A stretch of DNA of 64,000 nt from an uncultured Gammaproteobacteria bacterium (GCA_963810615.1 CAWEOA010000002.1:654515-718514); one strand, 5' to 3'; counted from the stretch's first letter, positions 3,283 through 58,336 are shown. Notes: generated by a model not told the origin, from the sequence alone. Translations and numbers: made by a program.

Positions 3283-4536
3283 CTACGGCCCGGACGTTTC
3301 CAAGCGGTCGGCCCGGCGCAAGGCCGGAAACAGTTTGGCCCATATGGCGGTCACGGCGATGGAACCGATGCCGCCCAGCAGCGCCGAGCCGACCGGGCCC
3401 AGCAAGCGTGCCGCCACCCCGCTCTCGAATTCGCCCAGTTCGTTCGAGGCGCTGATGAACATCCCCGACACGGCGGAAACACGACCGCGCATCAGGTCCG
3501 GCGTCACCACCTGCACCAGGCTCTGACGAATGAAGACCGAGATGACATCCGCCGCACCCAGCACGACCAAGGCGGCCATGGACAGCATCAGATCCCGGGA
3601 AACGGCAAAGACGATGGTCGCAAGACCGAAGACCACTACCGCCCATAGCATCCACGCACCCGCGTAGCGGTGAATAGGTCTGAAGCTCAGCAGCAAGGCC
3701 ATCAAGCCGCCGCCTATCGCCGGCCCGGAACGCAATAGGCCGAAGCCATGCGGCCCGACGCTGAGAATATCGTGGGCATAAACGGGCAACAGCGCCGTCA
3801 CCCCGCCGAGCAACACGGCGACCAGGTCCAGGGAGATGGCGCCGAACACGACCTTGTTCGACCAGATATAGGCCAGACCCTCGCGGATCATGGCCATTCG
3901 CGAAGCGCCGTTATGCACCGGCCGGGTATTGCCGCGTATCGACGTGAAGGCGGTGAGCGCCAACAGATACGAGCCGGCCGCAACGGCGTAGGAAAGCGAG
4001 ATGGAAACGGCGCACAGCACCCCACCCAGCCACGGCCCCAGGATCATGCCCCCCTGGCTGCCGAGAGAACTCCAGGCGATGGCTCGCGGCAGCAACTCGA
4101 TGGAAACCAGCATCGGCCCCAGCGCGCTGGCTGTCGGGATGATGAAGGCGCGCGCCACCCCGAACAGGGCCGCGACGGCAAAAATCAGCACCAAAGGAGG
4201 ATGTGCCGACCAGGCGATGGCGGCCAGCGCGGCGGCGCATAACAGCTGCAGCAAGGTTGCAGCGAGCAGAATCTTACGCCGGTCGTAACGATCCGCCGCC
4301 GCCCCGGCCAGCAAACTCAAGGCGAACAGCGGCAAAAACTGCACCAGCCCGACCATTCCCACCAGGAATGCGCTTTGTTCGACACTGTGACTCAGGCGCG
4401 CAATGGTATAGACCTGCCACCCCAGGGTAACGCTCATGGTGAAAGTGCCGAGCGTGGAGAGAAAACGACCTAGCCAGAACTTGGCAAAATAACCGTGGCG
4501 AAAAACCTGGAGGGAAGAATTCAAGGAAGCATGCAA
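3283..4536 (-). CDS. MFS transporter
   Basis: The 417-aa product has about 12 hydrophobic segments and the GRxxDRxGRR-like loop motif (DRYDRRKIL) between TM2 and TM3. Confidence 0.8.
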   Translation of the reverse strand: MHASLNSSLQVFRHGYFAKFWLGRFLSTLGTFTMSVTLGWQVYTIARLSHSVEQSAFLVGMVGLVQFLPLFALSLLAGAAADRYDRRKILLAATLLQLLCAAALAAIAWSAHPPLVLIFAVAALFGVARAFIIPTASALGPMLVSIELLPRAIAWSSLGSQGGMILGPWLGGVLCAVSISLSYAVAAGSYLLALTAFTSIRGNTRPVHNGASRMAMIREGLAYIWSNKVVFGAISLDLVAVLLGGVTALLPVYAHDILSVGPHGFGLLRSGPAIGGGLMALLLSFRPIHRYAGAWMLWAVVVFGLATIVFAVSRDLMLSMAALVVLGAADVISVFIRQSLVQVVTPDLMRGRVSAVSGMFISASNELGEFESGVAARLLGPVGSALLGGIGSIAVTAIWAKLFPALRRADRLETSGP

Positions 4537-19925: not shown

Positions 19926-21644
19926 CTATGCCGAAGTGTGCAATTCGAATAGGGAAAAATCGGTTTGGGCAATGATCGCCTCGCCCAGGGCGGCGCTATG
20001 CTGGTGATCGGCGAACATCACCGTCAAGCGGTCGCCGGTAATCAAATTCTGCTTATTGTCGCACAGTAGCTGCAATTTACCATCCTTGGTGCTAATCATC
20101 AGGGCGGGCAAGGGCGGTTGCTCCATGCCGTCCTCCTCCACCACTAGTACCGGAAGAATCTCACCTGCGATGCGGGCGATCGCCACCTGCACTTCGTCAT
20201 CCCCGATACGCTGGAGACGCACCACATAGCCCAAGCGACTGGCGGCAAACTCGTCCTCTTTACTGTTGTAGGCCACCAGGCGACCCACATAGACCGGCAG
20301 CCCGTATTCGCCCTCCTGGACATGCAGCTGAATACCTCCCACCCCTTCGTCGGCAACCACCCAGCGCGGCTCGCTTATCCCCTCTTCGTTTTCGGCGACG
20401 ATATTGATGTGCTCCGCCAGCGCATCCCAAAAGCGCCGCTCCTGCTTAACGGTTTCTTTATCGCTATCCTTACGATTGATATCGTCAAATAAGCGATACA
20501 CCGTTTCGAAGCCTCCATAGAGGCGGGCATGCTGCCCCCCGAAGACGCGTTGCCGCGGCTCATGACGCTGGCGGGGCTGCACGCGGTGGAGCAGCAAGTC
20601 CAGAAAGATAATCCGCTCCCGCTCCGGAATTTCCTGTATGGGCGTACTGACGGACGATGTGTCCGCAGCAGACATGAGCGTCAAGCGATCCTCGGTTGCC
20701 TGTCTCAGAATGGGATTGAGATCAATGAGTAAAGATGCCTCCCCTTGATCCGAGGTCCGGCTAAACTGCGGCGGAACTGCCTGGTCATGATAAATAATGC
20801 AATGCCCGGCGGGAACATCACCAATGCTCTCATCGTCCTTGATGAAAGGTTCTTCGATGACACTCAAATAACGAACTACCCGATAGGCAAGATGGACCGG
20901 CCAACTGATCACATCCAACAAACCGGTCAGCTCGATGGCGAGATACAAATGCTCGAGATTTGCCATCTTGGGGAACAGTTCCACGCTGGAAACACTGTCC
21001 TCCACCGTCCACTGAATCTTGAGCGGATATTTCGCCTTCATGTCCCAATCGCTGCGCAAGGCGAAGAACAAATGATTAACGTCCCGCCAAATATAGTCGG
21101 GCAATTTTTGATAGCGAAAGGCCAGCAGCAGCTGCTCGAAACGAGCGCACTCGAAAATACGTAATGCGACCGTCAGGGTCCGTTCCCGGGTCGCGTGACT
21201 CTGATCGGGGTCGGCCCAATCCTGGCGGAAGAGCAATTTGTAGTTGATCGCCAACTGTTCGACGGCGCGTACGGCGTGGGAAATGGTTTCCCGCTGCTCG
21301 CGGGTCTCCGGAATCCCACCGCCCTGCTGGAAAAAGCGGGCAAACAAACTACTGACCGCGGCCACTACTTCATTCAATACTATATTGCTGATGCGGGTCC
21401 GCTGTTCGTAACTCATAGGCAGCGGGTTGATTTTATCAAGATAACGGTAGGCGGCCTGCAGCAACAGCAAGGGACCAAGCCGTTGTTGGATCACCTGATT
21501 CCACATGGCTTCGATATTTTGATCGATATCCTTCCCCACCTGCAGGGTCAGAGGGATATACAGAGCAACGACTTGACGATCCGTGTTCTTCTTGCGACTA
21601 CCGAACAGCGACTTGAATAACCCGGACTTTGTAGAATCTGCCAT
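19926..21644 (-). CDS. hypothetical protein, 572 aa, no recognisable motif
   Basis: It is a long uninterrupted ORF in a coding-dense region with codon usage like its neighbours. No signal peptide or TM helix was seen, and the start is taken at MADSTK. Confidence 0.6.
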   Translation of the reverse strand: MADSTKSGLFKSLFGSRKKNTDRQVVALYIPLTLQVGKDIDQNIEAMWNQVIQQRLGPLLLLQAAYRYLDKINPLPMSYEQRTRISNIVLNEVVAAVSSLFARFFQQGGGIPETREQRETISHAVRAVEQLAINYKLLFRQDWADPDQSHATRERTLTVALRIFECARFEQLLLAFRYQKLPDYIWRDVNHLFFALRSDWDMKAKYPLKIQWTVEDSVSSVELFPKMANLEHLYLAIELTGLLDVISWPVHLAYRVVRYLSVIEEPFIKDDESIGDVPAGHCIIYHDQAVPPQFSRTSDQGEASLLIDLNPILRQATEDRLTLMSAADTSSVSTPIQEIPERERIIFLDLLLHRVQPRQRHEPRQRVFGGQHARLYGGFETVYRLFDDINRKDSDKETVKQERRFWDALAEHINIVAENEEGISEPRWVVADEGVGGIQLHVQEGEYGLPVYVGRLVAYNSKEDEFAASRLGYVVRLQRIGDDEVQVAIARIAGEILPVLVVEEDGMEQPPLPALMISTKDGKLQLLCDNKQNLITGDRLTVMFADHQHSAALGEAIIAQTDFSLFELHTSA

Positions 21645-24175: not shown

Positions 24176-25063
24176 ATGTCATATCAAATCATCGTTCACG
24201 GCGGGGCTTACGACAATGACAGCGACGTCACCTTGCGAAAACGCATTTGCGGCGACATCGTCGCGGTGCTGGAAAAGGACTTGAGCCGGGGCGCGGCCGC
24301 CCTGGACATCTGCGAACAGGCCATCATCATGCTGGAGAACGACCCCTTGTTCGACGCGGGCACCGGCTCCTATATCCAGACCGACGGCGAGGTCCGCATG
24401 GATGCCTCGCTGATGACCAGTGAAATGGACCTGGGTTGCGTGCTACAGATCAGCCACGTCAAGAACCCCATCTCGGTAGCACGCAAGATCCTGGAGAATC
24501 CCTTGCACTGCACCCTGTCCGGCGAAGGCGCCAATCAATTCGCCGTGGAAATGGGCTTCGCCCGCCATGATCCGAGGACAGCCGAAACCCGGGCACTCCA
24601 TGACGAGATCGTCCGCAAACTAGATGGGGATTTCAGCTACCAGCATATCGCCGCAAAATACGGCCCCCGCGCACCGTCCCTAAGTACGGTAGGCTGCGTG
24701 GTCCGCGACCGCCACGGCATGATCGTAGCCGGCACCTCCACCGGCGGCCGCGAGGTCTGTTACCAGGGCCGGGTGGGCGACTCGGGCCAGCCGGGCAACG
24801 GCACCTACGCCGACCGCCATGCCGGCATCTCCTGCACCGGCGTCGGCGAGATGATCATGCGCATCGGCATGGCGCGCATCGTCGCCTTATATGTAGAACT
24901 TGGCGACAGCCTCGACAGCGCCTGCGAAAAGGCTATGCACAAACTCGCCGTCATCGGCGGCCGCGGCGGCATCATCGCCATCTCCCATAAGGGGGAAATT
25001 GTGTACAAGCACAACACGCGCGCAATGGATCTGGCGATGGCAATGCGTGTGAGCAATGAATAA
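24176..25063 (+). CDS. iaaA: isoaspartyl peptidase/L-asparaginase (Ntn-hydrolase family)
   Basis: It has the IIVHGGA start, the autoproteolytic nucleophile region G-TVGCVV and GTSTGG, and is 295 aa long. Confidence 0.85.
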   Translation: MSYQIIVHGGAYDNDSDVTLRKRICGDIVAVLEKDLSRGAAALDICEQAIIMLENDPLFDAGTGSYIQTDGEVRMDASLMTSEMDLGCVLQISHVKNPISVARKILENPLHCTLSGEGANQFAVEMGFARHDPRTAETRALHDEIVRKLDGDFSYQHIAAKYGPRAPSLSTVGCVVRDRHGMIVAGTSTGGREVCYQGRVGDSGQPGNGTYADRHAGISCTGVGEMIMRIGMARIVALYVELGDSLDSACEKAMHKLAVIGGRGGIIAISHKGEIVYKHNTRAMDLAMAMRVSNE

Positions 25064-25366
25064 TCCCGCAATGGCCTGTGCTTAAACATTGGTATAGGTA
25101 ATCTGTTCATTATCGTGCCTTATCGGCCCGCATTCGACCCAACGCAGACCTTCGAAAGAGACGGAAGCCCCGCTCATGGCTGATAAGTACGGGTCCCGCT
25201 TTTCCGGGCTTGAAATGATCATACTCACGGCGTTACGTCCTATAATTAAACGGTAATATCAAGTTAAATCGGGGAAAGTTGAAAATGTATAACGAGACTC
25301 GGAGTCCCGTTCATATAACTGTTATGCGTCTTATCAGAAAGTGACGCATCCGGTGTCTATAGACAA

Positions 25367-26146
25367 ATGAAGAACCAGCACGATGAATTGTGTGAACTGG
25401 GTTGGAACGACTGGTTCGATCAACGGGCAGCATGCAAACCAACAGATACTGTCGCACGCGTTGCGGCTGTCGACCGCGACCAGTTACTACTCGTGGATCA
25501 AGCCGGTCATTTTCGAGCAAAACTGTCGGGTAGCTATTTGCACCACCATCACGATTCACATGAACTACCCTGCGTGGGTGACTGGGTGTGCGTGGAGAGA
25601 CAACTCGGTGACGACTTTGGGATGATCCACACGCTCCTTGATCGCAGGACTTCGCTGCGTAGAAAGTCGGCTGGAAACAGCATCGAGCACCAAATGATCG
25701 CGGCAAACCTCGACTATGTGGTGATCGTTCAGTCATGCCAATTCGATTTCAATCTGAATCGCTTGGAACGCTATCTCGTCATGGTGTTGGATGGCGGGGC
25801 GGAGCCGTACATTTTGCTAACCAAGACAGACCTCGTCGATTTTACCGTGCTGGCCTCACAGTTGGCTGAGATAGCTTCCGCCGGTATCACCGCACCGATT
25901 TTGCCGCTAAGCAACGTCACTCATGATGGGCTGGATAATCTCAAGAGACTGCTATTACCAGGAAAAACCTATTGCTTTGTCGGTTCATCCGGGGTTGGCA
26001 AGAGCACGCTAATAAACCAGTTGATTGGCCACCAAAGGTTGGAAATAGGTGTAGTCAGTGGGACGGGAGAAGGACGGCACACGACAGTTCGACGAGAGCT
26101 GATTCGTCTCGACGGGGGCGCACTGGTCATCATTCGTACGAACTAG
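25367..26146 (+). CDS. RsgA/YjeQ-like circularly permuted GTPase, truncated at the G3 motif and lacking the C-terminal zinc-finger domain (possible pseudogene)
   Basis: It aligns with RsgA through the OB fold, the G4 block (LLTKTDL), G1 GSSGVGKSTLIN and G2 GRHTT. Where RsgA has VIDSPG the ORF reads VIIRTN-stop, and no continuation exists in any frame. No SD precedes the ATG. Confidence 0.65.
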   Translation: MKNQHDELCELGWNDWFDQRAACKPTDTVARVAAVDRDQLLLVDQAGHFRAKLSGSYLHHHHDSHELPCVGDWVCVERQLGDDFGMIHTLLDRRTSLRRKSAGNSIEHQMIAANLDYVVIVQSCQFDFNLNRLERYLVMVLDGGAEPYILLTKTDLVDFTVLASQLAEIASAGITAPILPLSNVTHDGLDNLKRLLLPGKTYCFVGSSGVGKSTLINQLIGHQRLEIGVVSGTGEGRHTTVRRELIRLDGGALVIIRTN

Positions 26147-26161
26147 CATGATGAGATTCAT

Positions 26162-26935
26162 ATGAACACAGCGCTCTTCTTCACCACATGGCTCGCGGGT
26201 CTTCCTGGGGTTATTGTAGTAGCGTGGTTCGTGTTACCGATTCTCGTCGCGGATCGCCACCTCTCTGCACCGCTTTGGGTTGTACAGGTAGGAAGCGCAT
26301 TGCAAAGCGCTGTGCTGCTCGGGCTCGCAACAGCGGCAGGCACAGCATTGGCTCCCAAAGTCGGTCTTGCGGCTCCGGTATTTTCAGCCCTTATACAACA
26401 CAAGCATGCTATTGAAACACTTCGCCCACAATTGTTACCCAGTCTTGTCGGTGGCCTTGTAGGTGCCACGATTTTGTGGGTGTCGACTGCTGTTGCTCCG
26501 AAAGCCTTAGCAGAGGCCCAAACCAGGTTCTCCATGCCGATCGTCGCACGCCTACTCTATGGAGGCATCACGGAAGAGTTGTTGATTCGCTGGGGGGGCA
26601 TGACGCTGCTTGTTTGGCTTCTGTGGCATCTTGGACAGGGGGGTGCAGCCTCGCCTTCTGCCATCAGCGTATATTTAGCCATTTGTCTCAGCTCGCTACT
26701 GTTTGGTGCTGGTCACTTACCGGCTGTAGCGTCTATGGTTGGTCACATATCAGTTGGCATTGCCATATACGTCATCGCCGCAAATGCGGCATTTGGCATT
26801 GTTGCAGGCTGGCTGTATTGGCGATTTGGACTTGAGTCGGCAATACTAGCGCACATACTTGCTCATGGAGTCTTTCTCTTGGTTTCTCGGCGAGGAGGCA
26901 TCGCTAACGGTTCCAGTAAACGGTCGGCATGCTAA
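26162..26935 (+). CDS. CPBP-family (CAAX protease/Abi, PF02517-type) intramembrane metalloprotease
   Basis: It is a polytopic membrane protein with the three CPBP motifs: EExxxR (ITEELLIRWGG), FxxxH (LLFGAGHLPA) and HxxxN/H (AHILAHGVF). Confidence 0.8.
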   Translation: MNTALFFTTWLAGLPGVIVVAWFVLPILVADRHLSAPLWVVQVGSALQSAVLLGLATAAGTALAPKVGLAAPVFSALIQHKHAIETLRPQLLPSLVGGLVGATILWVSTAVAPKALAEAQTRFSMPIVARLLYGGITEELLIRWGGMTLLVWLLWHLGQGGAASPSAISVYLAICLSSLLFGAGHLPAVASMVGHISVGIAIYVIAANAAFGIVAGWLYWRFGLESAILAHILAHGVFLLVSRRGGIANGSSKRSAC

Positions 26936-26971
26936 CCCGCCGCCCCTATTATATCTGAGCATTGAACGCCC

Positions 26972-27056
26972 GCTTCTGGCCGCATTCGGAAGTAGGCGCG
27001 GTGCAACGCGAACTGGCACTTTCGACCCGAAGCGGACGTTCAGTAATACAATGTCC
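26972..27056 (+). repeat. ~85-nt conserved non-coding element, copy 1 (downstream of the CPBP gene)
   Basis: It is about 75 % identical to copy 2 by manual alignment, sharing the blocks gcttctggccg, ggaag.aggc, cgcgaactggc, tcgacccg and gcgg.cgt. Confidence 0.7.
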
Positions 27057-27362
27057 GAGCTGATGAATCTGGGCACTGGAGTAATGGGATTTCCTTGCAT
27101 AAGCCAGAGAGACGGTCTTCAGAATCAAAGCAGCCCTTTGAAAATAGAGGCTCAATTACATCCGCTTTGTAAAAAGCGATAACCCTAAATACATCATTAA
27201 TTTTGTCGGTAATTTTTACAAGTCAGAGAATGGGGGAAATATGTCTTGTATTATCTAATTGATAAAGAATATTAAAATATTTATGGCATTTAATTTGCCT
27301 TTTTATATTAAAAATTATAAGGGGGTTCTGATAACCACACAACGGAAGGGGAGGGAGCTTTT

Positions 27363-27974
27363 ATGAAAGCATACAAATTCAGCATGCGAGCATTATGCAT
27401 ATCCATAATAGCGAGTTTGCAATTGCTTGGACTTTCGCAAGAGGCAGCTGCAAGTATTATCGTCCAACTCGATAGCGTTGCGCCAGATTTAGTATTTCCT
27501 GGCAATTACCGATGGACATTCTCGGCCATAGCCTCATCAACCGATGGGTTCGGCTCATCAGTAGATAACTACTTCACCATCTATGATCTTCCCGGTTCTA
27601 TTACCACTGTTGAAGCCAGTGCCGTATATTGGGGCAGTGCATCCAGCGCTTTGACGGGAGTCACCCCAGTGGGACTGACTCCGGCTGATGATCCAAGTAA
27701 GCCTAATGTTACATTTAGATATATGGACTCTAGCGATCGTCCCGGAAACGCGGCATTTCAAGCCGGCGATCATTTCGATATCATTTTGTCAGATGGGATT
27801 CCTATCGATCTCCAGTATTCGTGGCAGGATTACAGCGCCTATCCAATTGTAAATAATCCACTGCAGAGTGGTCTGGGCACAGTTCAAAACAGCGTACCTG
27901 AGCCTGCAACTATCGGTTTAATAGGTCTCGGTTTAGCCGGATTGGGAATCAGCCGTCGAAAACGCGTCAACTAG
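27363..27974 (+). CDS. PEP-CTERM sorting-domain protein (exosortase substrate)
   Basis: It has a signal peptide and a C-terminal VPEP-ATIGLIGLGLAGLGI-SRRKR tripartite PEP-CTERM motif. A strong AGGGGAGGGAG SD precedes the start. Confidence 0.85.
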   Translation: MKAYKFSMRALCISIIASLQLLGLSQEAAASIIVQLDSVAPDLVFPGNYRWTFSAIASSTDGFGSSVDNYFTIYDLPGSITTVEASAVYWGSASSALTGVTPVGLTPADDPSKPNVTFRYMDSSDRPGNAAFQAGDHFDIILSDGIPIDLQYSWQDYSAYPIVNNPLQSGLGTVQNSVPEPATIGLIGLGLAGLGISRRKRVN

Positions 27975-27996
27975 ACGAATCCGTTATCGTGTAAGC

Positions 27997-28025
27997 AAAC
28001 CCCGCTTCGGCGGGGTTTTATTTTC
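27997..28025 (+). terminator. rho-independent terminator
   Basis: aaaccccgc-ttcg-gcggggttt is a perfect stem-loop followed by TTATTTT, and it lies 22 nt after the PEP-CTERM stop. Confidence 0.8.
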
Positions 28026-28072
28026 GTGAATCACGAGTCAAAGTGCAGCTGTGTAGTAGTGTGTAAAAGGCT

Positions 28073-28157
28073 GCTTCTGGCCGATGACGGAAGAAGGCAC
28101 AGCTAACCGCGAACTGGCGCTATCGACCCGCTGCGGGCGTCCGGTCAACATGAGCCA
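28073..28157 (+). repeat. ~85-nt conserved non-coding element, copy 2 (downstream of the PEP-CTERM gene and its terminator)
   Basis: See copy 1. The orientation is the same. Confidence 0.7.
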
Positions 28158-28372
28158 CCTGGCCAATAAGTTTCCTCCAAAACACCCAAATCTTACGGCA
28201 TCACGACTAATATGGGGTTAGACACTCCCGCCTGCTCCCTCGGTACACTCAACATCTGCAACAAATCAAACAGTGGACGATAACCTTTCAACATCAGAAT
28301 CCTCAACAATCACAACATACATGCGATGTGGAGGCGAAGGTTGCAAATACTGCACGGGAGGTTAGAACACTT

Positions 28373-28528
28373 ATGGACCTACACGAATCATTGTGTGAAA
28401 TATTAATTGCTGAAAAGATGGAGGAGAATCCACGGTTAACAAAGAAGGCTGCGGCTGAAATGGTTAATCGCGAGTTAAAAGAACAAGCGGCAGAAAATGA
28501 TGATATTTTCAGGTGTAGTGGCGATTAA
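28373..28528 (+). CDS. small hypothetical protein (51 aa)
   Basis: The ATG is preceded by GGGAGG, and the product is charged and helical (MDLHESLCEILIAEKMEENPRLTKK...). There is no homology support. Confidence 0.25.
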   Translation: MDLHESLCEILIAEKMEENPRLTKKAAAEMVNRELKEQAAENDDIFRCSGD

Positions 28529-28819
28529 CATTATATCGGGGCACATAAAAACATAGGAGTCATGCGCTGGAACCCGGTGCTGGCCAATTTTTATTTAAAA
28601 TCGTGATAATTTAATTATCTCGTTCTATATCAGTGGCCTTATGATTTAGAGGTCCACTTTCAGAGCGGACGTTCTTTCGGATTCGATACCATTCGGCAAA
28701 AGATATGGCAGCTCAATGTCTTGGGTATAACGCTTGTAAAGCAAGGTGGAAAACAGTGCTGAACATGCCATACTTTATAAAAAGATACTAAATTAGTGTG
28801 ATGCTGGGGAGGCAGTGTT

Positions 28820-29242
28820 ATGCCATACATCGTAGCTCAACATCCAAAGTTGGATGTGGTGGAACTTAAGCTCACCGGATTGATTACCGGAGTTGACTTA
28901 AGGAAAGCAACGTCCGAATGCATCGCAATACAGAAGCAGAATGGAATAAAGAGGTTTCTAGTTGATGCGAACGAGGGGGAAGTGGTCGCATCATTCAATG
29001 AGCTTTTCGAAATAGTAAGTGAGCAATATCACATTGAAGGACTCGATAAGAACAGTCGCATTGCGGTGATGCTTCCAACTACTTTAAGTGCAAAAGCCGC
29101 TGCAGATTTCTACGAAGCCGTATGCTTAAAAGGTGGGTGGAATGCACTGGTGTTTCCAAGCAATGAAAGCGCACTAGATTGGTTGATGGATACCGCTGAC
29201 ACAAGCAAGTCAACTGATAACGGGCCTCTTCACCGGTCCTAA
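28820..29242 (+). CDS. SpoIIAA-like/STAS-fold protein (DUF3478-type), paralog A
   Basis: A GGGGAGG SD precedes the start. The pattern LKLTG.ITG....EAT..CIA.QKQ...RFLVD..E.E..ASF...........RIAV.LPTT........FYE.V...GW.A.VF......A.DWL matches, as far as I recall, the SpoIIAA-like family consensus (RVLVDL.DFEGW ... RVAVVGD ... VRYF ... A..WL). Confidence 0.6.
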   Translation: MPYIVAQHPKLDVVELKLTGLITGVDLRKATSECIAIQKQNGIKRFLVDANEGEVVASFNELFEIVSEQYHIEGLDKNSRIAVMLPTTLSAKAAADFYEAVCLKGGWNALVFPSNESALDWLMDTADTSKSTDNGPLHRS

Positions 29243-29368
29243 AACGACCCAAAGCGGCAACGTCAATTTCTTGCGCTTCAGCGAATTAAGAAACACGGAA
29301 AACGGTGCGGCGCATGTCATACTTTAATAAAGCATATTAGCTTGCTGAGATATTGGAGGAAGTCGACT

Positions 29369-29773
29369 ATGCCATATACCATAACGTATGATCCTGAGTC
29401 AGATATCGTCAACCTGGCATTCACCGGGGAAATTACTGGGATAGTGATATCGGAAGCAACGTCTAAATGTATCGCCCTTCAGAAGCAGTCGCGTGCATTG
29501 CGCTTTCTAGTCGAAGTAAATGGGTGGGAAGTTGTCGCGTCATTCGTTGATATTTACAAACTTATTTACGATCAATACGCGGCAGAAGCAGCACATCGTC
29601 TATCCCGTATTGCTGTTGTACTTCCAACTACGGCAAGCGGACAAACTGCTGCAACCTTCTACGAAACTGTAAGCCAAAATGCTGGTTGGAAAGCACAGGT
29701 ATTTGCAAGCCGTAAAAATGCAATTGATTGGCTAACGACTAGCGAAAATATCAATGTCGTTGCTGCAGATTAG
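29369..29773 (+). CDS. SpoIIAA-like/STAS-fold protein (DUF3478-type), paralog B
   Basis: A GGAGGAAG SD precedes the start. It is about 45 % identical to paralog A, and both have upstream regions containing catactttaataaa. Confidence 0.6.
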   Translation: MPYTITYDPESDIVNLAFTGEITGIVISEATSKCIALQKQSRALRFLVEVNGWEVVASFVDIYKLIYDQYAAEAAHRLSRIAVVLPTTASGQTAATFYETVSQNAGWKAQVFASRKNAIDWLTTSENINVVAAD

Positions 29774-29858
29774 CGTATTTATCCAACGTAGCTCACTCAG
29801 CAGAACATCCAATTCTCGCGACACGGTAAGGTCACCTTCCCCACTCGTATGACCGCTT

Positions 29859-30236
29859 CTGGCCGGCAAGCGACCGATCGGCGCGGTCGTTCCCGGGTTG
29901 TGATGGTCTTAAACTTCAGTTTTCTCAGACATTTCCAGGGCGTCGTCAACCTCGATCCCAAGATATCTGACCGTGCTTTCCAGCTTTGTGTGCCCAAGCA
30001 GCAGCTGAACAGCTCGAAGATTCTTTGTTCTCCGGTAGATCAATGTTGCTTTTGTACGACGCAGGGTGTGTGTTCCATACTCCCCAGGATCCAGCCCAGC
30101 GAGAGCCACCCACTTTTTCACAATACGAGCGTATTGCCGCGTAGAAATATGTAGAGACTCCCTTAGCCGGCTAGGGAAAAGGAACTGACCCGAAGTGAGC
30201 TGTGCCTTGGCAATCCATGCCTCAACAGCCTCGCGC
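29859..30236. repeat. direct repeat copy 1 (3' portion of the recombinase gene), ~95 % identical to 32045-32422
   Basis: Manual alignment of the two stretches shows near-identity over about 380 nt, with a few substitutions and one 4-nt indel. Confidence 0.85.
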
Positions 30237-30544
30237 GTCTGGTCGGTCAACTCAAACTTCACCGGCTGTGCGGTCTTTTGCTGCATGACGGTCGTCCGTG
30301 ATATTGCCTTGCCGCTGTGTGCCACATCCCTCACTTGAAGCTTGACGATATCGCAGCCCCGAAGCTTGCTGTCGATTGCCAGGTTGAAAAGGGCAAGGTC
30401 TCTGATGCGTCTGGCCAATTGCAGTCGAATTCGGATTGCCCAGATCTCGCGAAGCTTCAATGGCGGCTTCGGCCCGATCAACCGATCCTTATTCCAAGGG
30501 ATGTGGGCGGCTGTGGCGGCTGTATTGTCTTGATTGATGTACAT
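29909..30544 (-). CDS. tyrosine-type site-specific recombinase/integrase (short form, catalytic domain)
   Basis: The C-terminal HTLRRTKATLIYRRT...LLLGHTKLESTVRYLGI carries the R...HxxR...Y catalytic signature of phage-integrase-family recombinases. A GGAGG SD lies 9 nt before the ATG at 30544. Confidence 0.8.
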   Translation of the reverse strand: MYINQDNTAATAAHIPWNKDRLIGPKPPLKLREIWAIRIRLQLARRIRDLALFNLAIDSKLRGCDIVKLQVRDVAHSGKAISRTTVMQQKTAQPVKFELTDQTREAVEAWIAKAQLTSGQFLFPSRLRESLHISTRQYARIVKKWVALAGLDPGEYGTHTLRRTKATLIYRRTKNLRAVQLLLGHTKLESTVRYLGIEVDDALEMSEKTEV

Positions 30545-30599
30545 GGTGTGTTTCCTCCATTCTGACTAGGGAAACACAAGTTTGGTTGATCGCAGCAGG

Positions 30600-30642
30600 T
30601 GGCGCTTGCCGACCCTTAGCCGACGTGGGCGTGAGTGTCAGC
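30600..30642 (+). repeat. partial third copy (3' half) of the ~85-nt element, about 55 nt upstream of the recombinase start codon
   Basis: tggcgcttgccgaccc..gccgacgtgggcgt aligns with tggcgctatcgaccc..gctgcgggcgt in copy 2. Confidence 0.5.
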
Positions 30643-30939
30643 TTTGAATAGATCCATGCAGAAAAGGGCCGCGGCGAGGTCTAGTCCGGGAGGATGATCC
30701 AAAATCGTGTCGAAATCTTTTACAATCAGACTGTCGCCGCCCCCAGATCAACCACAGGCCGGCTTGTAACAAACTGAAAACTTAAGTGCCTTTCATTCAC
30801 GGCACATAAATTGCTGCCATCAAGAACGGCCAGAGTGACGGCGTGGGGGGCACTCCGATATAAAAACGCGAATAAGGAGCGTCCGCGATGGCTTCGTTTA
30901 ATATGCACGAGCCATAAACATTCACATTGAGGAGACACC

Positions 30940-31806
30940 ATGAGACTTTCCGCCTGGCCCTGGCTCGGGATCCTGGCTGCCGCCATCACGATTGGCGCGG
31001 CGTCGGAGGCACGGGCGACACCGACCTATTGGAACCTATTCAACATCGAGGGTGAGAACAGCCTCAGCGCGGGTTTCATTACCTACGCCAGCCAGATTGA
31101 CATGCTGTTCGACATCAATCGGACGGGCTTCTATCAACCGAATGGCTACGGAGCGGGCCAGAACGTCGTCGGCACCGGATCGGACGGAACGACCTACTGG
31201 AACCTATTCAACATCGAGGGTGAGAACAGCGCTTTGGCAGGCTTCATCACCTATGACTCGCAGTTCGACATGCTGTTCGACATCAACCGGACGGGCTTCT
31301 ACCAGCCGAACTTCCACGGGGCGGCCCAGAACGTCGTCGGCAGCGGGTCGGACGGAACGACCTACTGGAACCTGTTCAACTTCGAGGGCGAGAGCACGTC
31401 CAACGCGGTCTACGTTACCTATGACAGCCTGATCGACATGCTGTTCGACAACAACCGGACGGGCTCCTTCATCCCGGACGGTTACGGGGCAGCCCAGAAC
31501 GTCGTCGGCAGCGGGTCGGACGGAACGACCTACTGGAACCTATTCAACATCGAGGGTGAGAACAGCCTCAGCGCGGGTTTCATTACCTACGCCACGCTGA
31601 TCGACATGCTGAACGACACTAACCGAGTGGTGTTCGCCCAGCCGAATGGCTACGCGGCGGGCCAGAACGTCGTCGGCAGCGGCGCGACCGTGATGGCCAT
31701 AACGGGGCCGGGGCCTGTGACCACCGTTCCCGAGCCGGAGACGCTATGGTTGCTGGGGCTGGGGCTGGTCGCTCTCAGCTTTCAGGCGAGGCACCGCGTG
31801 CGCTGA
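30940..31806 (+). CDS. PEP-CTERM protein with four 57-aa tandem repeats
   Basis: It has a signal peptide, four repeats starting TYWNLFNIEGENS...QNVVGSGSDGT, and a C-terminal VPEPETLWLLGLGLVAL-SFQARHRVR motif. A GAGGAGA SD precedes the start. Confidence 0.85.
   Translation: MRLSAWPWLGILAAAITIGAASEARATPTYWNLFNIEGENSLSAGFITYASQIDMLFDINRTGFYQPNGYGAGQNVVGTGSDGTTYWNLFNIEGENSALAGFITYDSQFDMLFDINRTGFYQPNFHGAAQNVVGSGSDGTTYWNLFNFEGESTSNAVYVTYDSLIDMLFDNNRTGSFIPDGYGAAQNVVGSGSDGTTYWNLFNIEGENSLSAGFITYATLIDMLNDTNRVVFAQPNGYAAGQNVVGSGATVMAITGPGPVTTVPEPETLWLLGLGLVALSFQARHRVR
31024..31704 (+). repeat. four in-frame 171-nt tandem repeats inside the PEP-CTERM gene
   Basis: Repeats 1 and 4 are identical at the nucleotide level over more than 60 nt (acctattggaacctattcaacatcgagggtgagaacagcctcagcgcgggtttcattacctacgcc). 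Confidence 0.9.
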
Positions 31807-32044
31807 AAAAATCCGGGTCAGATCACAGTTCTTTCTAATATAGATATACATCACTGAGCCAACTCCACAAGAAGATGGATAATGGCATGCAAACCCCGTT
31901 TTGCTCCACCGTGTATACCTCAACACATCATCCAGCGCGGAAATAACCGCGATGCATGCTTTTACGCAGATCAAGACCTTCAGTTCAAGCTAGACTACTT
32001 AAAAAAGCGGACAGTCAGCCTCAAGTAAAGAACGGCTCGTATTG

Positions 32045-32440
32045 GCCGGCAAGCGACCGATCGGCGCGGCCGTTCCCAGACCGTGGTGGCCTTAACCTTC
32101 AGCTTGCTCAGACATTTCCAGGGCGTCGTTAACCTCGACCCCAAGATATCTGACAGTGCTTTCCGGCTTTGTGTGCCCAAGCAGCAGCTGAACAGCTCGA
32201 AGATTCCTTGTTCGCGGGTAGATCAACGTTGCTTTTGTACGATTCAGGCTGTGTGTTCCATCCTCCCCAGGATCCAGCCAGCCCAGCGAGAGCCACCCAC
32301 TTTTTCACAATACGAGCGTATTGCCGCGTAGAAATATGTAGAGACTCCCTTAGTCGGCTCGGGAAAAGGAGCTGACCTGAAGTGAGCTGTTCTTTAGCAA
32401 TCCATGCCTTAATAGCCTTTCGTGTCTGGGTGGACATTCA
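32045..32440 (-). pseudogene. frameshifted 3' fragment of a second recombinase gene (duplicate of 29859-30236)
   Basis: It encodes ...AIKAWIAKEQLTSGQLLFPSRLRESLHISTRQYARIVKKWVALAGL and then shifts frame at a ccagcc duplication. It has no N-terminal part and no start. Confidence 0.75.
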
Positions 32441-32492
32441 ACGTACAAATTGGGCGCTGCGCGCTATTGAGCAGCCCCTCTCTAATGGAGGG

Positions 32493-32720
32493 TTATGCCG
32501 GGATTACTTCATTACAGACTACACCAGTCTCTTTGTTTTCGATTCGACTTTTAAACTTGTCATCCAAAGACGGGGCAGCAAGTCTCCCGATTAGCACATA
32601 GTCATTTTGCGTAACAGCCTTGGCGCTGGGGAACAAAAGAGGAGACGCAATTGCGATGGCTGCAAGTATGCAAATGACGATAACGACGAATAACGGAACA
32701 GCACGATTCGATAGCTTCAT
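32493..32720 (-). CDS. small exported or membrane hypothetical protein (75 aa)
   Basis: A GGAGG SD lies 8 nt before the ATG, and the N-terminus is a hydrophobic signal/TM segment. Confidence 0.4.
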   Translation of the reverse strand: MKLSNRAVPLFVVIVICILAAIAIASPLLFPSAKAVTQNDYVLIGRLAAPSLDDKFKSRIENKETGVVCNEVIPA

Positions 32721-33816
32721 TTAAATAACCTCCAACTTAAATAAAACAACGATAGTCACTCGATGTTTGTGAATGGGCATAACAGGCAACAGGCGGGCGC
32801 TCAGCATGCGCCGCAATTGATTAATATGCAATGGTATTGGTGCGCCGGCGTCAGTATATAAATCACAACAGTGCTGATATTGCCTGCAGGCTAGGGCTCG
32901 GAAGCGACAGTTCGCTACTGGCCGGGGGTGAACTTTTGAATGACCGCTATCATACAGCAGGAAAGATCAATAGAAACATAGAGTCTCTACGTTTCACCGC
33001 GATGCTCAGCGAAGCCATCCCATGGTTCGACACATGAGAGTCACACATTCATACGTGAGTAGCCGATAAGTGCTAAGCTGCTATTAACGTAAACGCAGGG
33101 GAAAATGTTATATCAACCGAAGAACAACGTGAGGCAGAGGCTGCGTCCCTTGAGCAGGAACGCCTAGCCTTCAATAGAACACATACTGCATGGATCGCCG
33201 TTCAAAATCAGTTTACACCCTTTGGTAATGGACAGCCTACTCAGGACAGCATTGATCAATACTATGCTGCCGAAATTGATTGGGAAGTAGCCCAAGCAAA
33301 AGTGAAGCGTTTCGGCATCGAAACAAGGAGTGATGCATGATAATAAAGCCTACCCGAAACGACGTACACGGAGCCGCCGCCATACTGATAAAGGTAAAAG
33401 GGGCTCCCGCACTTATGAAAGTGCTCGGCACATACGGTGCCGTCCGTACCGGCCAAATTCAGATGCGCGACTGGCCTCGATTTATCACAGATTGTCAGAA
33501 AGTGGAAACTGCATAGCTATCGTTTATCTGTCCAGCCTTTTCGGATCCAAGTTGATCAATGCGAATTTGTCCACTTGAAAATTGGACACTCAGTTCACCT
33601 AGAGCAATGTCGGGTATTGGCCGACACTTGCCTTGACCGATAGGCAGGCGCGACGGGATATCAATACTGAGGACTGACAATATTCGATAACTACGGTTGT
33701 TTCAGCGTGATGCAGATGCCCAACATATTAGTTAGCGGTCGCGGCTATGAGAGACGACAGAATTAGCACGGAAGAATCATGAGCACGACGCCCTCAATTA
33801 CGATAACAGGTCGTTA

Positions 33817-34287
33817 CTACCAGGCATGGATGTAATTAAGTGAGACCTGCATAGGCTCGAAAGGAGCCTGGATGTTGTAAATGGCGCCGTGATAGTAACT
33901 ATCCAGCGTCACATTGAGCGACAACCTTCCCGTATTGGTATTTGTATCCGCTCCCGTGGAAGCCTCGCTGAAATTAGCATTCCCGCCGGACACGGACCTG
34001 TCCGAGGTTTGCCATCCAGCATTCACGCCACGTACGCCAGACGCGAGTTGTGACGGACGGACCTCGATGCCACTCTGCCGTCCGGCATTGCGCGTAGTTG
34101 CCTGAGAAGACAGGACGGCGGGATCACAGCGGGAGAAGATCGCAGTGCACAGAAGGAGAGTGGCGCTCTGCGACCCAGATACCGCTCGCGGCGCAACCGC
34201 CCCTTCAGCGCGGCATCCAACTGAGGCACCCATTCCAAAAACAACGAGAGACAAGTTTAAGATTAAAACGCGCCTCTGACAGGACAT
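33817..34287 (-). CDS. secreted hypothetical protein (156 aa)
   Basis: An AAAAGGAG SD lies 7 nt before the ATG. The product has a signal peptide, a Ser/Gly/Asn/Thr-rich mature region and a C-terminal aromatic residue. Confidence 0.55.
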   Translation of the reverse strand: MSCQRRVLILNLSLVVFGMGASVGCRAEGAVAPRAVSGSQSATLLLCTAIFSRCDPAVLSSQATTRNAGRQSGIEVRPSQLASGVRGVNAGWQTSDRSVSGGNANFSEASTGADTNTNTGRLSLNVTLDSYYHGAIYNIQAPFEPMQVSLNYIHAW

Positions 34288-34915
34288 CTGGAAACTCCTT
34301 TTTAGCTGGCTGCTGGCTGCGATTAACTGACTATTGTACGCTTTTTTTAAATACCAACAAAAGGTTAGACAACAATTTCGTCAAAAATATCCCTGCGAAT
34401 AGGAGGCCACCCCAAACGAGGAGTGGATAGTTCTTTCGCAAACTTCAGCTTTGGAGGCAACATACAAAAGTCAGATATCAAAAATTCAACAAATTGCGCA
34501 CCTTCCAATTCTTGATAAAGTAAGTCATCAATAGGCCTATATATTGTCGCGAACTCGGAGCTAAACAGCTTAATTAGTTGGCTTTCAATTTAGACAGGGC
34601 AAGGCGCTCAAAGAGCATGAATCCGCTTAGCTCGTCAGGGAAGTGGGCTCTCAGCCCTGTCTAATCAAGTGACTGATTGAACTCGCAGCCGATGCGAGAC
34701 ATTCCAACAGCTGCACTTCGGTATAGATAATGACAGAGAAATTAGGCACGACCAGTGGCTACACTTAACGCGCTCGTTTCGCTCTCATGGGCATAATATG
34801 CAGTGTGATATAAATGAAAAAAACTCAACAGAGAAGGAAATCGACAACCGTGTTACGTGGTTTAAACTTATGTAGGGATGAATGATCCGTTACACATGGC
34901 GCGCTAAGCACCTAC

Positions 34916-35962
34916 TTAGCAGATACGCGGCAAGGGATCGCTGCTCAACCAGTCCACCAGGCGGTTGCCGCCGAAGGCGGTCTCCATCTCCACAAATCGA
35001 TGCTCGTCGGCGCGCACCTCGCCGATGATGACGGCATCCTTACCCAAGGGGTGATGGCGCATCACCGCCACCAGATCGTCGGCACATTGGGGCGGACACA
35101 CGGCCACCAGCTTGCCTTCGTTGGCAATGTATAAAGGGTCGAGGCCGAGGAATTCGCAGGCAGCGCTCACCGCGGGACGGACCGGGATGTCGCGCTCGCG
35201 GATGATCATCCCTACGCCGGACTGGCGCGCCCATTCATTGAGCACCGCGGCCAGGCCGCCGCGGGTGGGATCGCGTAGACAATGGATGTCCGGCGCCACC
35301 TCAATCATAGCCGCCACCAGTTCGTGCAAGGCCGCGCTGTCGGACCGCAATTCGGTCTCAAACTGCAGGTGTTCCCGCTGCGAGAGGATGGCCACGCCGT
35401 GGTCGCCGATGCTGCCGCTGAGGATGATGCGATCACCCGATCGCGCGCGGTCGGCGCCAATATTCACGTCGGACGGCACGCTGCCCACGCCGGTAGTGGT
35501 AATGAACACCCCATCGCCCTTGCCGCGCTCCACCACCTTGGTATCGCCGGTGACCACGACCACATCGGCGGCGCGCGCCGCCGCCGCCATGGAATCGACG
35601 ATGCGCCGCAAGTCCGTCAGGGGGAAGCCTTCTTCGATGATGAAGCTCGCCGACAGATACAGCGGCCGCGCCCCGGCCATAGCGATGTCGTTGACAGTGC
35701 CGTGCACCGCCAGGCTGCCGATGTCGCCGCCGGGAAAGAACAGCGGCGACACCACGAAGCTGTCTGTGGTGAGTACCAGGCGCCCGGGCGGCGGTTCGAA
35801 GGCCGCCTGATCGTTCATCGCGCGCAGCCAATCGTTGTCGAAGGCGGCGACGAATAATTCCTCGATCAGTTGCGCCGTGGCGCGCCCGCCGCTGCCGTGA
35901 CCGAGCTCAACGCGGCCATGGGCGAAATCCAGGGGTGGAAAATAATCTTTATTCTTGCTCAT
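34916..35962 (-). CDS. hypE: hydrogenase maturation protein HypE (carbamoyl dehydratase)
   Basis: It has an AIR-synthase-related fold and the conserved C-terminal PRIC with the catalytic Cys as the last residue. Confidence 0.9.
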   Translation of the reverse strand: MSKNKDYFPPLDFAHGRVELGHGSGGRATAQLIEELFVAAFDNDWLRAMNDQAAFEPPPGRLVLTTDSFVVSPLFFPGGDIGSLAVHGTVNDIAMAGARPLYLSASFIIEEGFPLTDLRRIVDSMAAAARAADVVVVTGDTKVVERGKGDGVFITTTGVGSVPSDVNIGADRARSGDRIILSGSIGDHGVAILSQREHLQFETELRSDSAALHELVAAMIEVAPDIHCLRDPTRGGLAAVLNEWARQSGVGMIIRERDIPVRPAVSAACEFLGLDPLYIANEGKLVAVCPPQCADDLVAVMRHHPLGKDAVIIGEVRADEHRFVEMETAFGGNRLVDWLSSDPLPRIC

Positions 35963-42259: not shown

Positions 42260-42763
42260 TCAACCGATGATGATTTTGTCGTCGGCAGCAAAATGATAAG
42301 GCGGCACATCGAGATTACGCGGCGCCGGCCCTGAAATGATTCTTCCGCTGTTATCGTAGACACTGCCGTGGCAGGGGCATAACCAGCCCTTTGCGGTCTT
42401 ATTCGGCACACAGCCGAGATGGGTGCAGATGCCCACCACTACCAACCAATCGGGATTTTTTACGCGCGCCGCATCGGGCTGCGGGTCCTTGCCGCCCTGG
42501 GACTTTTCCATAGCGGCAATCTCCTCCTGAGTGCGATGGAAGAGAAAAATCGGCTCACCCCGCCATGGCACGGTATGCACCGCACCGGGAGCGACACCTT
42601 GAAGATCGACCTCCGTCACCGCCTCCGACTTGACCGAAGGGGTAGGGTTCATGCTGCTGATGAAAGGCCAGCACGCCCCCGCCGCGCCCGCCACCCCGAG
42701 GATGGTGGTCGAGGTAATGAGAAAATCTCGTCGTTCTGGGTCAACTTTATCTTGGTCCGACAT
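42260..42763 (-). CDS. petA: ubiquinol-cytochrome c reductase Rieske iron-sulfur subunit
   Basis: It has the twin-arginine-like RRDFL N-terminus, a TM anchor, and the Rieske boxes CTHLGC and CPCHGS. Confidence 0.9.
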   Translation of the reverse strand: MSDQDKVDPERRDFLITSTTILGVAGAAGACWPFISSMNPTPSVKSEAVTEVDLQGVAPGAVHTVPWRGEPIFLFHRTQEEIAAMEKSQGGKDPQPDAARVKNPDWLVVVGICTHLGCVPNKTAKGWLCPCHGSVYDNSGRIISGPAPRNLDVPPYHFAADDKIIIG

Positions 42764-43276
42764 CTGAGAACTTCCTATCCATGTATTGGAACAATATTCA
42801 CGGAGAAGCTAGCTACTCCATCCAATGACGCATTTCGACTTTTCTGGCGCCAACTATACACCTTCTACCTTTACTTGATAATCGCGTACATCATACTGGG
42901 CAAAATTTGCGCCACTAATCATTCTCTGCTCCATACGACCTATCTCAAAATGTAAATTCAGGCCAAAATCCGCTGAAGGCTCACACCAAACATCAATAAT
43001 TCTCGGAAAATACGGCAATTGCAGCAGGATATGGCCGCCGCCACAAATTCAATTTTCAGGCAGGCTCGAATGATGATTCGCTGCAAATTGTCACAAATGA
43101 GGTAGCTCTCATTGGGTGCGGAAGTGCACCAAAAAGTTTCATCCGGCAAGACGATATTATTCGACTTCGATATCAAAAATGCGACGCTGCTCGCTGAGCG
43201 CATAGCAGAGATACATGGAGAGCATGGGCAACGATGATTTACACCACTTTTCTCTACCCTATGAGACTAAAAATGC

Positions 43277-43597
43277 TCAGTCCCAGCGCGCGTCGCGCAC
43301 TTGGATCATCCCTTCGTAAATTCGGACAGGAAAGGTAGGAATTGCCTCGTAGGCGGGCGGGGCTGTCACGGCGCCGGTTTTGATGCAGAACCGCGCTCCA
43401 TGGCGCGGGCAGATGATTTCATCGCCCTCTAACTTGGCATCGGCTAAAGGTGCATAGTCGTGGGTGCAGACGTCTTCGATGGCATAGTATTCGCCCTCCA
43501 GGTTGAACACCGCGATTTGGACATCATCGACATCCACGATACGCCGGTCTCCCGGTGAAAGCTCTGCTATTTTCGCGACATCGACCCAATCGGACAT
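43277..43597 (-). CDS. small Rieske [2Fe-2S] ferredoxin (NirD-like)
   Basis: The 106-aa product has the CTH...CPRHG Rieske cluster ligands. It is the last gene of the suf operon. Confidence 0.8.
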   Translation of the reverse strand: MSDWVDVAKIAELSPGDRRIVDVDDVQIAVFNLEGEYYAIEDVCTHDYAPLADAKLEGDEIICPRHGARFCIKTGAVTAPPAYEAIPTFPVRIYEGMIQVRDARWD

Positions 43598-57581: not shown

Positions 57582-58013
57582 GTTATCGCTAAACCATCTT
57601 GGTTATTAATTCCCTGAGTAATTTGTCGCCCATTTTGCCCACAACTTTAGAACCGCCACTGCGAACATCGCCGCCTCCGATCCGGATAAACTAAGCGGCT
57701 AGCCCTCGCAGGAGAAATACTACCAAGCGGAATAAACGTCAATGGCTTATCATAACGTTGATATTAGCACTTGGGCGAAAATTTGGTCCCGGGAAATGCT
57801 CACCTGCTTAATTGACACTCAAGTCTGGTGAAAATTCGCCGACTGTATAGGCCAGAGTTACGGTGGTGTGTGGTAGTTGAACGTATGCTGTTCTACACCA
57901 TCCAATACTCTATAAATGTATGTAACAATATTTCGCCAAAGATCAACCGCGCAAATTGTGAACTCATTCATAGCTGTACCATGCTTTAATCTGTAGGATA
58001 GCCTTTAAAATAC

Positions 58014-58310: not shown

Positions 58311-58336
58311 CACCTCCGTTTGCCCAAGGAGCGGGC

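Follow-up and report, generated by a model that had tools for sequence, protein, structure and literature searches.

The 64,000-nucleotide stretch of DNA from an uncultured Gammaproteobacteria bacterium analyzed here (GCA_963810615.1 CAWEOA010000002.1:654515-718514; hereafter, the window) contains, between the convergent core genes iaaA and hypE, a low-GC stretch (25064-34915). This stretch is truly an accessory island that varies between strains; it occupies a hotspot, was built up piecemeal and is partly in decay. The island carries palindromic sites, one of which encloses a discrete recombinase-encoding core, and module boundaries lie at the centres of such sites. We consider it probable that DNA accretes at the gap between iaaA and hypE and that site-specific recombination at this hotspot exchanges the modules. 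The association of the recombinase with the sites and its architecture suggest that this enzyme would catalyze the exchanges, and the modules would presumably be delivered as circles. The island as such, i.e., a variable hotspot with surface-protein cargo, is routine; what makes it interesting is the machinery that it contains.

The GC content of the island is 0.499, compared with 0.585 and 0.597 in the 10 kb on each side and 0.583 in the rest of the window. Along the GC profile, the flanks range from 0.58 to 0.66 and the island from 0.40 to 0.55, and the switch coincides with the stop codons of iaaA (25063) and hypE (34916). The GC content at third codon positions (GC3) is 0.79 in sfsA, 0.75 in the DUF2937 gene, 0.79 in iaaA, 0.81 in hypE and 0.72 in hypD, and 0.37-0.60 in nine of the ten open reading frames (ORFs) of the island, the exception being the gene for the second of its two PEP-CTERM proteins (30940-31806; GC3 0.85); the spacers have a GC content of 0.40-0.52. 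Apart from this gene, composition and codon usage in the island are unlike those of the flanking core genes. The initial annotation of this DNA, made from the sequence alone, had reported a sharp GC drop between the two stop codons and AT-rich spacers, both of which hold, and the windowed GC and codon usage by which it proposed to check the island call are clearly non-uniform, in favor of an island.

The borders carry neither a tRNA or tmRNA target nor flanking direct repeats (att). There is no tRNA within 28 kb of the island, the nearest being tRNA-Met at 63310-63386, and no direct or inverted repeat of at least 9 nt is common to the two borders, so that a tRNA scan and a border repeat search agree with what had been noted initially. 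The island is also free of phage, conjugation and defence genes (PADLOC reported nothing); the only PHROGs matches are the integrase and a marginal ABC-transporter match for an rsgA-like protein. These absences argue against a single integrative element inserted once (an integrative conjugative or mobilizable element, a prophage remnant or a tRNA-type island), to which the one contiguous low-GC block with an integrase-family gene might point. The GC3 of the island genes is heterogeneous (0.37-0.85), close strains differ internally, and the integrase gene sits in the middle of the island within its own 750-bp unit; we regard such a single insertion as extremely improbable. An Rfam scan of the island detected no family, the only match being a terminator-only fragment of RsmY, and gave no attC-type match. 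The 11-nt inverted repeat to which the initial annotation drew attention near the right border is present (34590-34600 / 34654-34664), with no evident role: at least one such repeat is found in 22% of shuffled islands, so that it is not significant alone, it is unrelated to the site family described below, and it was rejected as a border feature. The 86-nt stretch that holds it has a folding z of -4.1, the stretch having been picked for the test.

A scan for IaaA of one genome per species identified two relatives, a gammaproteobacterial metagenome-assembled genome (MAG), L002, and a Chromatiaceae MAG, L001. In both, iaaA (24176-25063, plus strand; isoaspartyl peptidase/asparaginase_2, PF01112) is 85-86% identical to that of the window and synteny ends at its stop codon. 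In L002, the flanks are ~83% identical and the order sfsA-DUF2937-iaaA ... hypE-hypD-hypF is kept; nucleotide homology stops at position 25046 of the window and resumes at 34915, next to hypE (34916-35962, minus strand; AIRS/AIRS_C). The gap in L002 is filled by 2.4 kb of unrelated DNA with a GC content of 0.47 (0.469), which includes a cytochrome-c-like gene, and L001 has a third, different filler with a GC content of 0.45 (0.447). No island protein has a counterpart in the filler of L001 or L002, and no sites are found there either. Given that three lineages carry unrelated low-GC fillers, the iaaA-hypE gap is a hotspot and the content of the window is lineage specific. Absence of the block from related genomes with syntenic flanks favors the island call, and the comparison with an unoccupied site that had been proposed revealed variable content at the same spot, with no empty site at the iaaA-hypE gap in the two relatives compared. 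A stretch of 62 nt just after the iaaA stop codon (L001 6065-6126 and L002 9988-10049; 76% identity), which the window lacks, is common to both relatives and may represent the ancestral 3' region or terminator of iaaA.

That only two relatives are comparable, neither with an empty site, could also be accommodated if the region were native and ancestral, lost or replaced in the relatives, its low GC content reflecting relaxed selection. Decay alone would not be expected to lower GC3 by 0.2-0.4 in intact ORFs, three fillers in three lineages would have to be explained, and the gene for the first PEP-CTERM protein (PEP-CTERM1) recurs in unrelated contexts; we consider an ancestral origin very unlikely.

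At the strain level, a search for exact protein matches yielded L003, a metagenome contig of 300 kb with 99.4-99.9% identity to the window, from which it differs at two places. The first is a segment of 501 bp that is extra in L003 at position 26130 of the window. It restores a full-length 356-aa rsgA-like gene, of which the window has a truncated version (a GTPase paralogue, 25367-26146, plus strand; PF03193, E 7e-40), and holds one more palindromic site (L003 12323-12398); the junction of the deletion in the window shows TCAT microhomology. The second difference is the absence from L003 of 2183 bp that comprise the 5' half of the recombinase gene and the gene for the second PEP-CTERM protein (PEP-CTERM2). 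The window contains direct repeats of ~390 bp (29860-30249 / 32043-32436; ~90% identical). One of them is the 3' half of the recombinase gene, the other a second copy that is truncated at its 5' end and frameshifted; the only repeat copy in L003 is a patchwork of both. The 2183-bp difference fits gene conversion or homologous recombination involving the two repeats and does not agree with crossing over at a short site. The decayed second recombinase element (32031-32437, minus strand), which lies 2.2 kb away from the intact one and contains the right-hand repeat, retains the 3' half only and a site arm and has a 4-nt frameshift; no further recombinase remnants occur in the island beyond the full and the decayed copy. 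A 1.6-kb contig from another sample (L090), identical to the window over 30611-32099, represents a third variant. The ~390-bp direct repeat, the two 86-nt palindromic elements described below and the truncation of the rsgA-like gene had been overlooked in the initial annotation; the single island of ~9.8 kb that it proposed is real as an island and turns out to be a mosaic hotspot, not one insertion.

The recombinase, the presence of which was correctly recognized from the start, is encoded on the minus strand (29909-30544) and is a confident member of PF00589 (E 2.6e-21, 76.6 bits vs. a cut-off of 27.1). With 211 aa, it consists of the catalytic domain only, the Pfam match beginning at residue 45. 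The residues R62, K90, H159, R162, H185 and Y194 are invariant in 22 homologues, i.e., the R-K-H-R-H/W-Y signature of tyrosine recombinases is complete, and the N-terminal core-binding domain (~100 aa) is missing. In the AlphaFold model (pLDDT 74), a disordered stretch (residues 1-26) and just two helices (31-58) come before the Pfam-matched region; the fold matches XerA, XerH and Cre, and Foldseek gave generic Xer/Cre matches only. The NCBIfam model 'tyrosine-type DNA invertase' gave a weak match (26.5 bits vs. a cut-off of 222).

The family is very large and highly conserved, with more than 8000 database matches, those listed being 67-100% identical and almost all 208-212 aa long, and 1016 clusters at 50% identity (E<=1e-30). 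The listed homologues come from Methylomirabilis, Acidobacteria, Mariprofundus, Salinisphaera and many metagenomes. Most of the query is found in 374 plasmid records, several copies being present in some replicons; well-studied replicons among them are pMOL30, Pseudomonas aeruginosa megaplasmids and Methylomonas pLM6. The homologue on pMOL30 is WP_008652562 (RMET_RS30660), and that on P. aeruginosa pPUV-1 is WP_015278136. In a megaplasmid of a cultured strain, pSBC2-1 of Caballeronia sp. SBC2 (L094), which has five matches, a full and a 5'-truncated recombinase copy lie 7 kb apart (12709-13185 and 20001-20645), an arrangement that mirrors the full-plus-remnant layout of the window. In the records and sources examined, these proteins are named 'tyrosine-type recombinase/integrase' or 'integrase' only, and exact-sequence look-ups for the recombinase and for PEP-CTERM2 returned nothing on record. 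Two surveys of tyrosine recombinases do not single out this group, and one of them deems proteins of less than 200 aa probably defective. A literature search, incomplete in coverage, for small recombinases with palindromic repeats or for the motif strings found no description.

The ends of the recombinase element were defined with 80 additional recombinase loci. A preceding four-way alignment of the 80-nt repeats of the island with the regions downstream of the integrase gene had been unconvincing, and the relation became clear only after these loci were added. A conserved sequence, G(T/A)CCGCTTCTGGCCGGTTAGCGACC, is located ~85 nt upstream of the recombinase gene, and the stop codon is followed by a covarying hairpin and then by GTCGCTAACCGGCCAGAAGCGGAC, so that the gene is bracketed by conserved inverted sequences. 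The underlying site is a palindrome in which two inverted arms, GNCCGCTTC and GAAGCGGNC, each at least 9 nt long, enclose a GC-rich TGGCCA; such an arm-spacer-arm layout is typical of the core sites of tyrosine recombinases (lox, FRT, dif). The sequence of the site is kept across phyla together with the recombinase.

In dozens of locus pairs, identity is 88-99.7% over the same ~700-780 bp and the DNA outside is unrelated; the copy in the window aligns to its relatives over 29851-30620. Near-identical pairs show 1-2 differences across ~620 internal positions and 2-3 within the 9 outermost nt of each side; by our count, the mismatches amount to 15 of 54 positions in the outer arms and 4 of 2490 inside. 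It follows from this excess of mismatches that the outer arms are part of the target site and that the core occupies its centre. The moving unit accordingly extends from TGGCCGG to CCGGCCA (~750 bp; 29862-30614), within a recombinase element that spans 29848-30626 on the minus strand and has outer site arms at both ends. In the manner of an insertion sequence (IS) or of a MITE (a miniature transposable element with inverted repeats), it is a discrete, near-identical unit with inverted termini (TGGCCGGTTAGCGAC and GTCGCTAACCGGCCA) found in unrelated contexts. No target-site duplication is evident, and the unit lies within a pre-existing palindrome whose arms mimic terminal repeats.

The contigs L062 (1-136) and L071 (1878-2013) have in common a flank of 136 nt, which is upstream of the core in one and downstream and inverted in the other, and their cores are 99.7% identical; site-specific inversion of the core was rejected as an explanation, given that the far flank does not match. 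In L072 (~3860-3925), a classical attC-like sequence, GCTAACAATTAATTCAAACCGACGCCGCTTCGCGCCGCGGCTTAATTCAAGCGTTAG, directly adjoins the upstream repeat of the recombinase element, which may have landed in or beside an integron array.

The same site also occurs without the recombinase gene. With a position weight matrix (PWM) built from the site arms and a threshold score of at least 10, nine matches were detected in the window, compared with about two in shuffled sequences, and seven of the nine are located in the island, which makes up 15% of the window (binomial p ~5e-5 by our estimate). Full palindromes are represented by two 86-nt elements, originally seen as an '80-nt direct repeat': site 1 (26960-27045, plus strand), which consists of GAACGCCCGCTTCTGGCCG, 38 nt and CGACCCGAAGCGGACGTTC, and site 2 (28061-28146, plus strand). 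A covariance model recovers both sites and the copy found only in L003 at E values of ~1e-13 to 1e-15 and gives no significant match in the rest of the window, in L001 or in L002; in the R1 version of the model, the E values are 6e-13 for site 1 and 8e-13 for site 2. The pairing of the arms is supported for site 1. RNAalifold pairs the inner 7 bp of the palindrome only, and an explicit test of 25-bp pairing gave a moderate result, with 70% of the positions paired, compared with 30-45% when the register was slid. With the same model, ~30 new gene-less palindromes were identified near the recombinase in unrelated contigs, typically between single genes. In the arrangement of L003, rsgA, the CPBP protease gene, the PEP-CTERM1 gene and the group formed by the 66-aa ORF and the two STAS genes are each followed by a site 28-90 nt after the stop codon. 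The palindromes do not serve as terminators, given that a separate intrinsic terminator of PEP-CTERM1 (27997-28018, plus strand), the hairpin of which is also the partial RsmY match, precedes the site.

An indication that the sites delimit exchangeable units comes from PEP-CTERM1 (27363-27974, plus strand; 203 aa, with an N-terminal hydrophobic signal-like segment; GC3 0.43). Close homologues of this protein (81-97% identical) lie on short contigs of 1.0-1.7 kb. One of these, L093, aligns to the window only over 27019-28084 (1066 bp), a span that starts in the right arm of site 1 and finishes in the left arm of site 2. Outside this block, L093 consists of unrelated DNA in which a 40-nt version of the palindrome, particular to L093, is present at each end (covariance model E 5e-4 and 2e-3). 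In two further contigs, L091 and L092, homology begins at the same half-site as the left boundary in L093; nucleotide identity to the window in the three contigs is 85-86%. The PEP-CTERM1 module (27019-28084, plus strand) thus is found in varied contexts, in the window and L003, in L093, and in L091/L092, bounded by arm-spacer-arm sites in the way of a dif module. The observed pattern, with inner arms moving along with the cargo and outer arms remaining in their surroundings, is the outcome predicted for integration of a one-site circle into a resident site. Downstream of the module in L093 (~1440-1475), there is a fragment resembling the 3' end of a tRNA, GGTCGGGAGTTCGAATCTCTCCGGGCGCGCCA, in which ARAGORN calls no tRNA and which may be an att remnant of another integrative element.

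The strongest competitor of site-specific exchange is passive colonization, whereby the island would have been built otherwise, for instance by homologous recombination in the flanks after transformation or conjugation, and the recombinase and the palindromes would be IS/MITE-like parasites that landed later in the AT-rich spacers and have no role in the movement of the cargo. Several observations are compatible with it: the recombinase core is IS-like, a discrete unit with many near-identical copies; the palindromes occupy spacers, which tolerate insertions; homologous recombination accounts for the 2183-bp polymorphism; and the fillers of the relatives and the distant PEP-CTERM1 homologues have no sites. 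However, the PEP-CTERM1 block in L093, L091 and L092 ends inside the flanking sites, with only the inner arms included. Independent MITE insertions are not expected to repeat the same two boundaries, and movement as a composite transposon would carry whole elements. For these reasons, we rate passive colonization as rather unlikely, albeit the alternative to be taken most seriously.

An array of integron cassettes, or a CALIN (attC sites clustered without an integron integrase), with the palindromes in the role of attC sites, would explain the imperfect hairpins of 40-86 nt that follow single ORFs and the tendency of their outer ends toward AAC...GTT, and the attC-like sequence next to the element in L072 is in line with it. 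Yet no IntI is encoded in the window, where there is no recombinase other than the copies of the element, and the 211-aa protein scores 29.4 bits against the IntI model TIGR02249 (cut-off 265) and 22 against PRK15417 (cut-off 435). The boundaries lie at site centres and not at the R' box (G/TT), the module does not include a whole downstream site, and the site sequence is conserved across phyla with this recombinase; an integron origin is therefore highly improbable.

We propose, then, a scenario of site-specific exchange along the following lines. Foreign DNA fills the iaaA-hypE gap differently in each lineage, in the present case as an accreted, partly decaying mosaic of small modules that are separated by copies of one palindromic recombination site. 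The recombinase, or possibly a host recombinase instead, would exchange DNA at site centres, such that a circular module with one site could integrate into, or be excised from, the site array. The recombinase core itself would hop between empty sites, an intact one of which is predicted to read GNCCGCTTCTGGCCAGAAGCGGNC. Overlaid on these are ordinary events: the 2183-bp block of int and PEP-CTERM2 is gained or lost by homologous recombination between the two recombinase copies, a deletion at a microhomology truncated rsgA, and IS elements enter sites.

Several observations weigh against this scenario. Excised circles, empty-site pairs and biochemical activity have all gone unobserved. Sites are lacking in the fillers of both relatives, L001 and L002, which makes the hotspot property independent of the sites, and three of the island 'sites' are weak PWM matches near chance: weak tandem half-site motifs at 25165-25215 (plus strand; score 11.6), an uncertain and possibly decayed site; similar uncertain motifs at 32907-32960 (plus strand); and an uncertain, degenerate palindrome resembling the L003-only site at 33606-33660 (plus strand; PWM score 11.8, partial covariance model match with E 2.6). 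It is possible that all three are remnants of sites. The sole presence/absence event that can be dissected within the population, that of the 2183 bp, has a mosaic junction inside the 390-bp repeat. PEP-CTERM1 is the sole module that can be traced in other contexts, its distant homologues (42-58% identical; L095, L096) have no sites around them, and the end of a block common to L044, L047 and L051 falls on the outer edge of an arm, not on a site centre. The mechanism of insertion, which had been described as unclear, now has a concrete candidate in the recombinase and its palindromic sites.

Elements of the IS1182-like and IS30-like types adjoin or interrupt the sites. In L090 (1-126), the sequence breaks inside the outer repeat of the recombinase element (window 30611) into an IS1182-like terminal repeat, GGGTTTTCACACAGCCTGG, and in P. 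aeruginosa pPUV-1 an IS1182-family element adjoins a truncated copy of the same outer repeat. Positions in L004 (921-941, 2603-2619 and 6915-6934) and L008 (3404-4774) belong to the same set of IS1182-family cases. Together, these cases suggest that the centre of the palindromic site is a site-specific target of IS1182-family elements. In L091 (2-757) and L092 (2-91), an IS30-family transposase gene ends beside the half-site upstream of the PEP-CTERM1 homologue and replaces the other half.

The cargo of the island consists mostly of envelope or secreted proteins. Both PEP-CTERM proteins that had been recognized initially exceed the curated cut-offs, with 33.7 and 29.2 bits against PF07589 (cut-off 20.7) and 28.6 and 18.8 against TIGR02595 (cut-off 16), and both combine the PEP motif, transmembrane helix and basic tail (VPEPATIGLIGLGLAGLGISRRKR and VPEPETLWLLGLGLVALSFQARHR) with an N-terminal signal. 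PEP-CTERM proteins serve as substrates of exosortases, none of which is encoded in the window; the exosortase system that the initial annotation placed elsewhere would lie outside it. PEP-CTERM2 (30940-31806, plus strand; 288 aa), which has a host-like GC3 and is not present in strain L003, contains four tandem repeats of 56 aa (168 nt each, 31022-31682; 80-86% identical) with the motif TTYWNLFNIEGENS..., and belongs to a family of ~290-aa proteins that is widespread in Alpha-, Beta- and Gammaproteobacteria and Myxococcota.

Among the other genes, the rsgA-like gene is followed by one for a CPBP/Rce1-like intramembrane protease (26162-26935, plus strand; PF02517, E 8e-10). Downstream of site 2, there are a 66-aa ORF without a family match (28328-28528, plus strand) and two SpoIIAA-like paralogues of the STAS fold (28820-29242 and 29342-29773, plus strand; PF11964, E 3e-3 and 7e-6). 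The latter derive from an old tandem duplication that included the upstream regions (28748-29182 / 29297-29731; ~64% nucleotide identity), and a lone motif resembling the right arm, ACGACCCAAAGCGG, is located between them (29244-29257). The right part of the island, on the minus strand, encodes a 75-aa protein with an N-terminal hydrophobic segment (32493-32720), a gene also called in L003, and a 156-aa protein with a signal-like N-terminus (33817-34287). Neither has a family match, and the hydrophobic N-termini agree with the small secreted proteins listed in the initial annotation. Elsewhere in the window, GC content drops to 0.45 at ~42750-43250 and to 0.46-0.55 over the last 7 kb, adjoining tRNA-Met; these regions (42500-43500 and 57000-64000) may be other accessory segments, and contain no site motifs.

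If the sites indeed bound exchangeable modules, they would provide a simple, testable, cassette-like mechanism for the movement of accessory genes, explain many short, repeat-broken metagenome contigs, and serve as a new annotation marker for variable regions. Going beyond this, we tentatively raise the possibility, which we hold to be somewhat short of likely, of a previously undescribed cross-phylum system of gene-module exchange, in which a catalytic-domain-only recombinase encoded in the centre of its own site moves from one empty site to another and, at arrays of sites, inserts or removes modules of a single gene. If true, integrons and dif modules would functionally be joined by a third type of 'cassette platform', which would also explain the spread of small surface-protein genes such as that of PEP-CTERM1.

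Comparison with known systems places the island itself among flexible genomic islands, with which it shares a conserved location, lineage-specific low-GC cargo related to the cell surface and strain-level variation, and from which it shows no difference. The combination of a coding unit with clustered gene-less palindromes that have the same termini resembles IS and MITE or RAYT and REPIN pairs; unlike these, the unit encodes a tyrosine recombinase instead of a DDE or HUH transposase, no target-site duplication is seen, and the outer arms belong to the target. The small size of the recombinase, its lack of an N-terminal core-binding domain and the inverted-repeat flanks are reminiscent of FimB/FimE, DNA invertases of ~200 aa. 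These enzymes act on a fixed promoter switch, whereas the present unit is mobile between genomes, and in the one contig pair with the core in both orientations at a common flank, the difference is not a simple inversion.

With integrons, the system has in common a tyrosine recombinase, hairpin palindromes after single small ORFs that look promoterless, low-GC cargo and the formation of arrays. In contrast to integrons, the IntI-specific insertion domain is missing and the protein is two thirds the size of IntI (~320 aa), the recombinase gene is located inside a site and not beside attI, boundaries fall at site centres, and no common promoter arrangement is seen, PEP-CTERM1 having its own terminator.

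The closest analogue, more so than integrons, is the dif modules of Acinetobacter plasmids. The pdif sites are dif-like sequences of 28 bp with an 11-6-11 layout that are bound by XerC/XerD. The consensus of the present site, GNCCGCTTC-TGGCCA-GAAGCGGNC, appears unlike the dif consensus. In Acinetobacter, XerC/XerD act at the pdif sites of these modules (PMC6449649, PMC13141974), and IS elements, namely those of the IS1202 family, target pdif sites (PMC10132070), as IS1182-like and IS30-like elements appear to do here. In both cases, small modules, often of one or two genes, are bounded by arm-spacer-arm sites and the same module is found in varied contexts. The present system differs in the sequence of the site and the long central insertions of many sites, in having a dedicated 211-aa recombinase housed in one site, and in its location at a chromosomal hotspot and its cross-phylum distribution.

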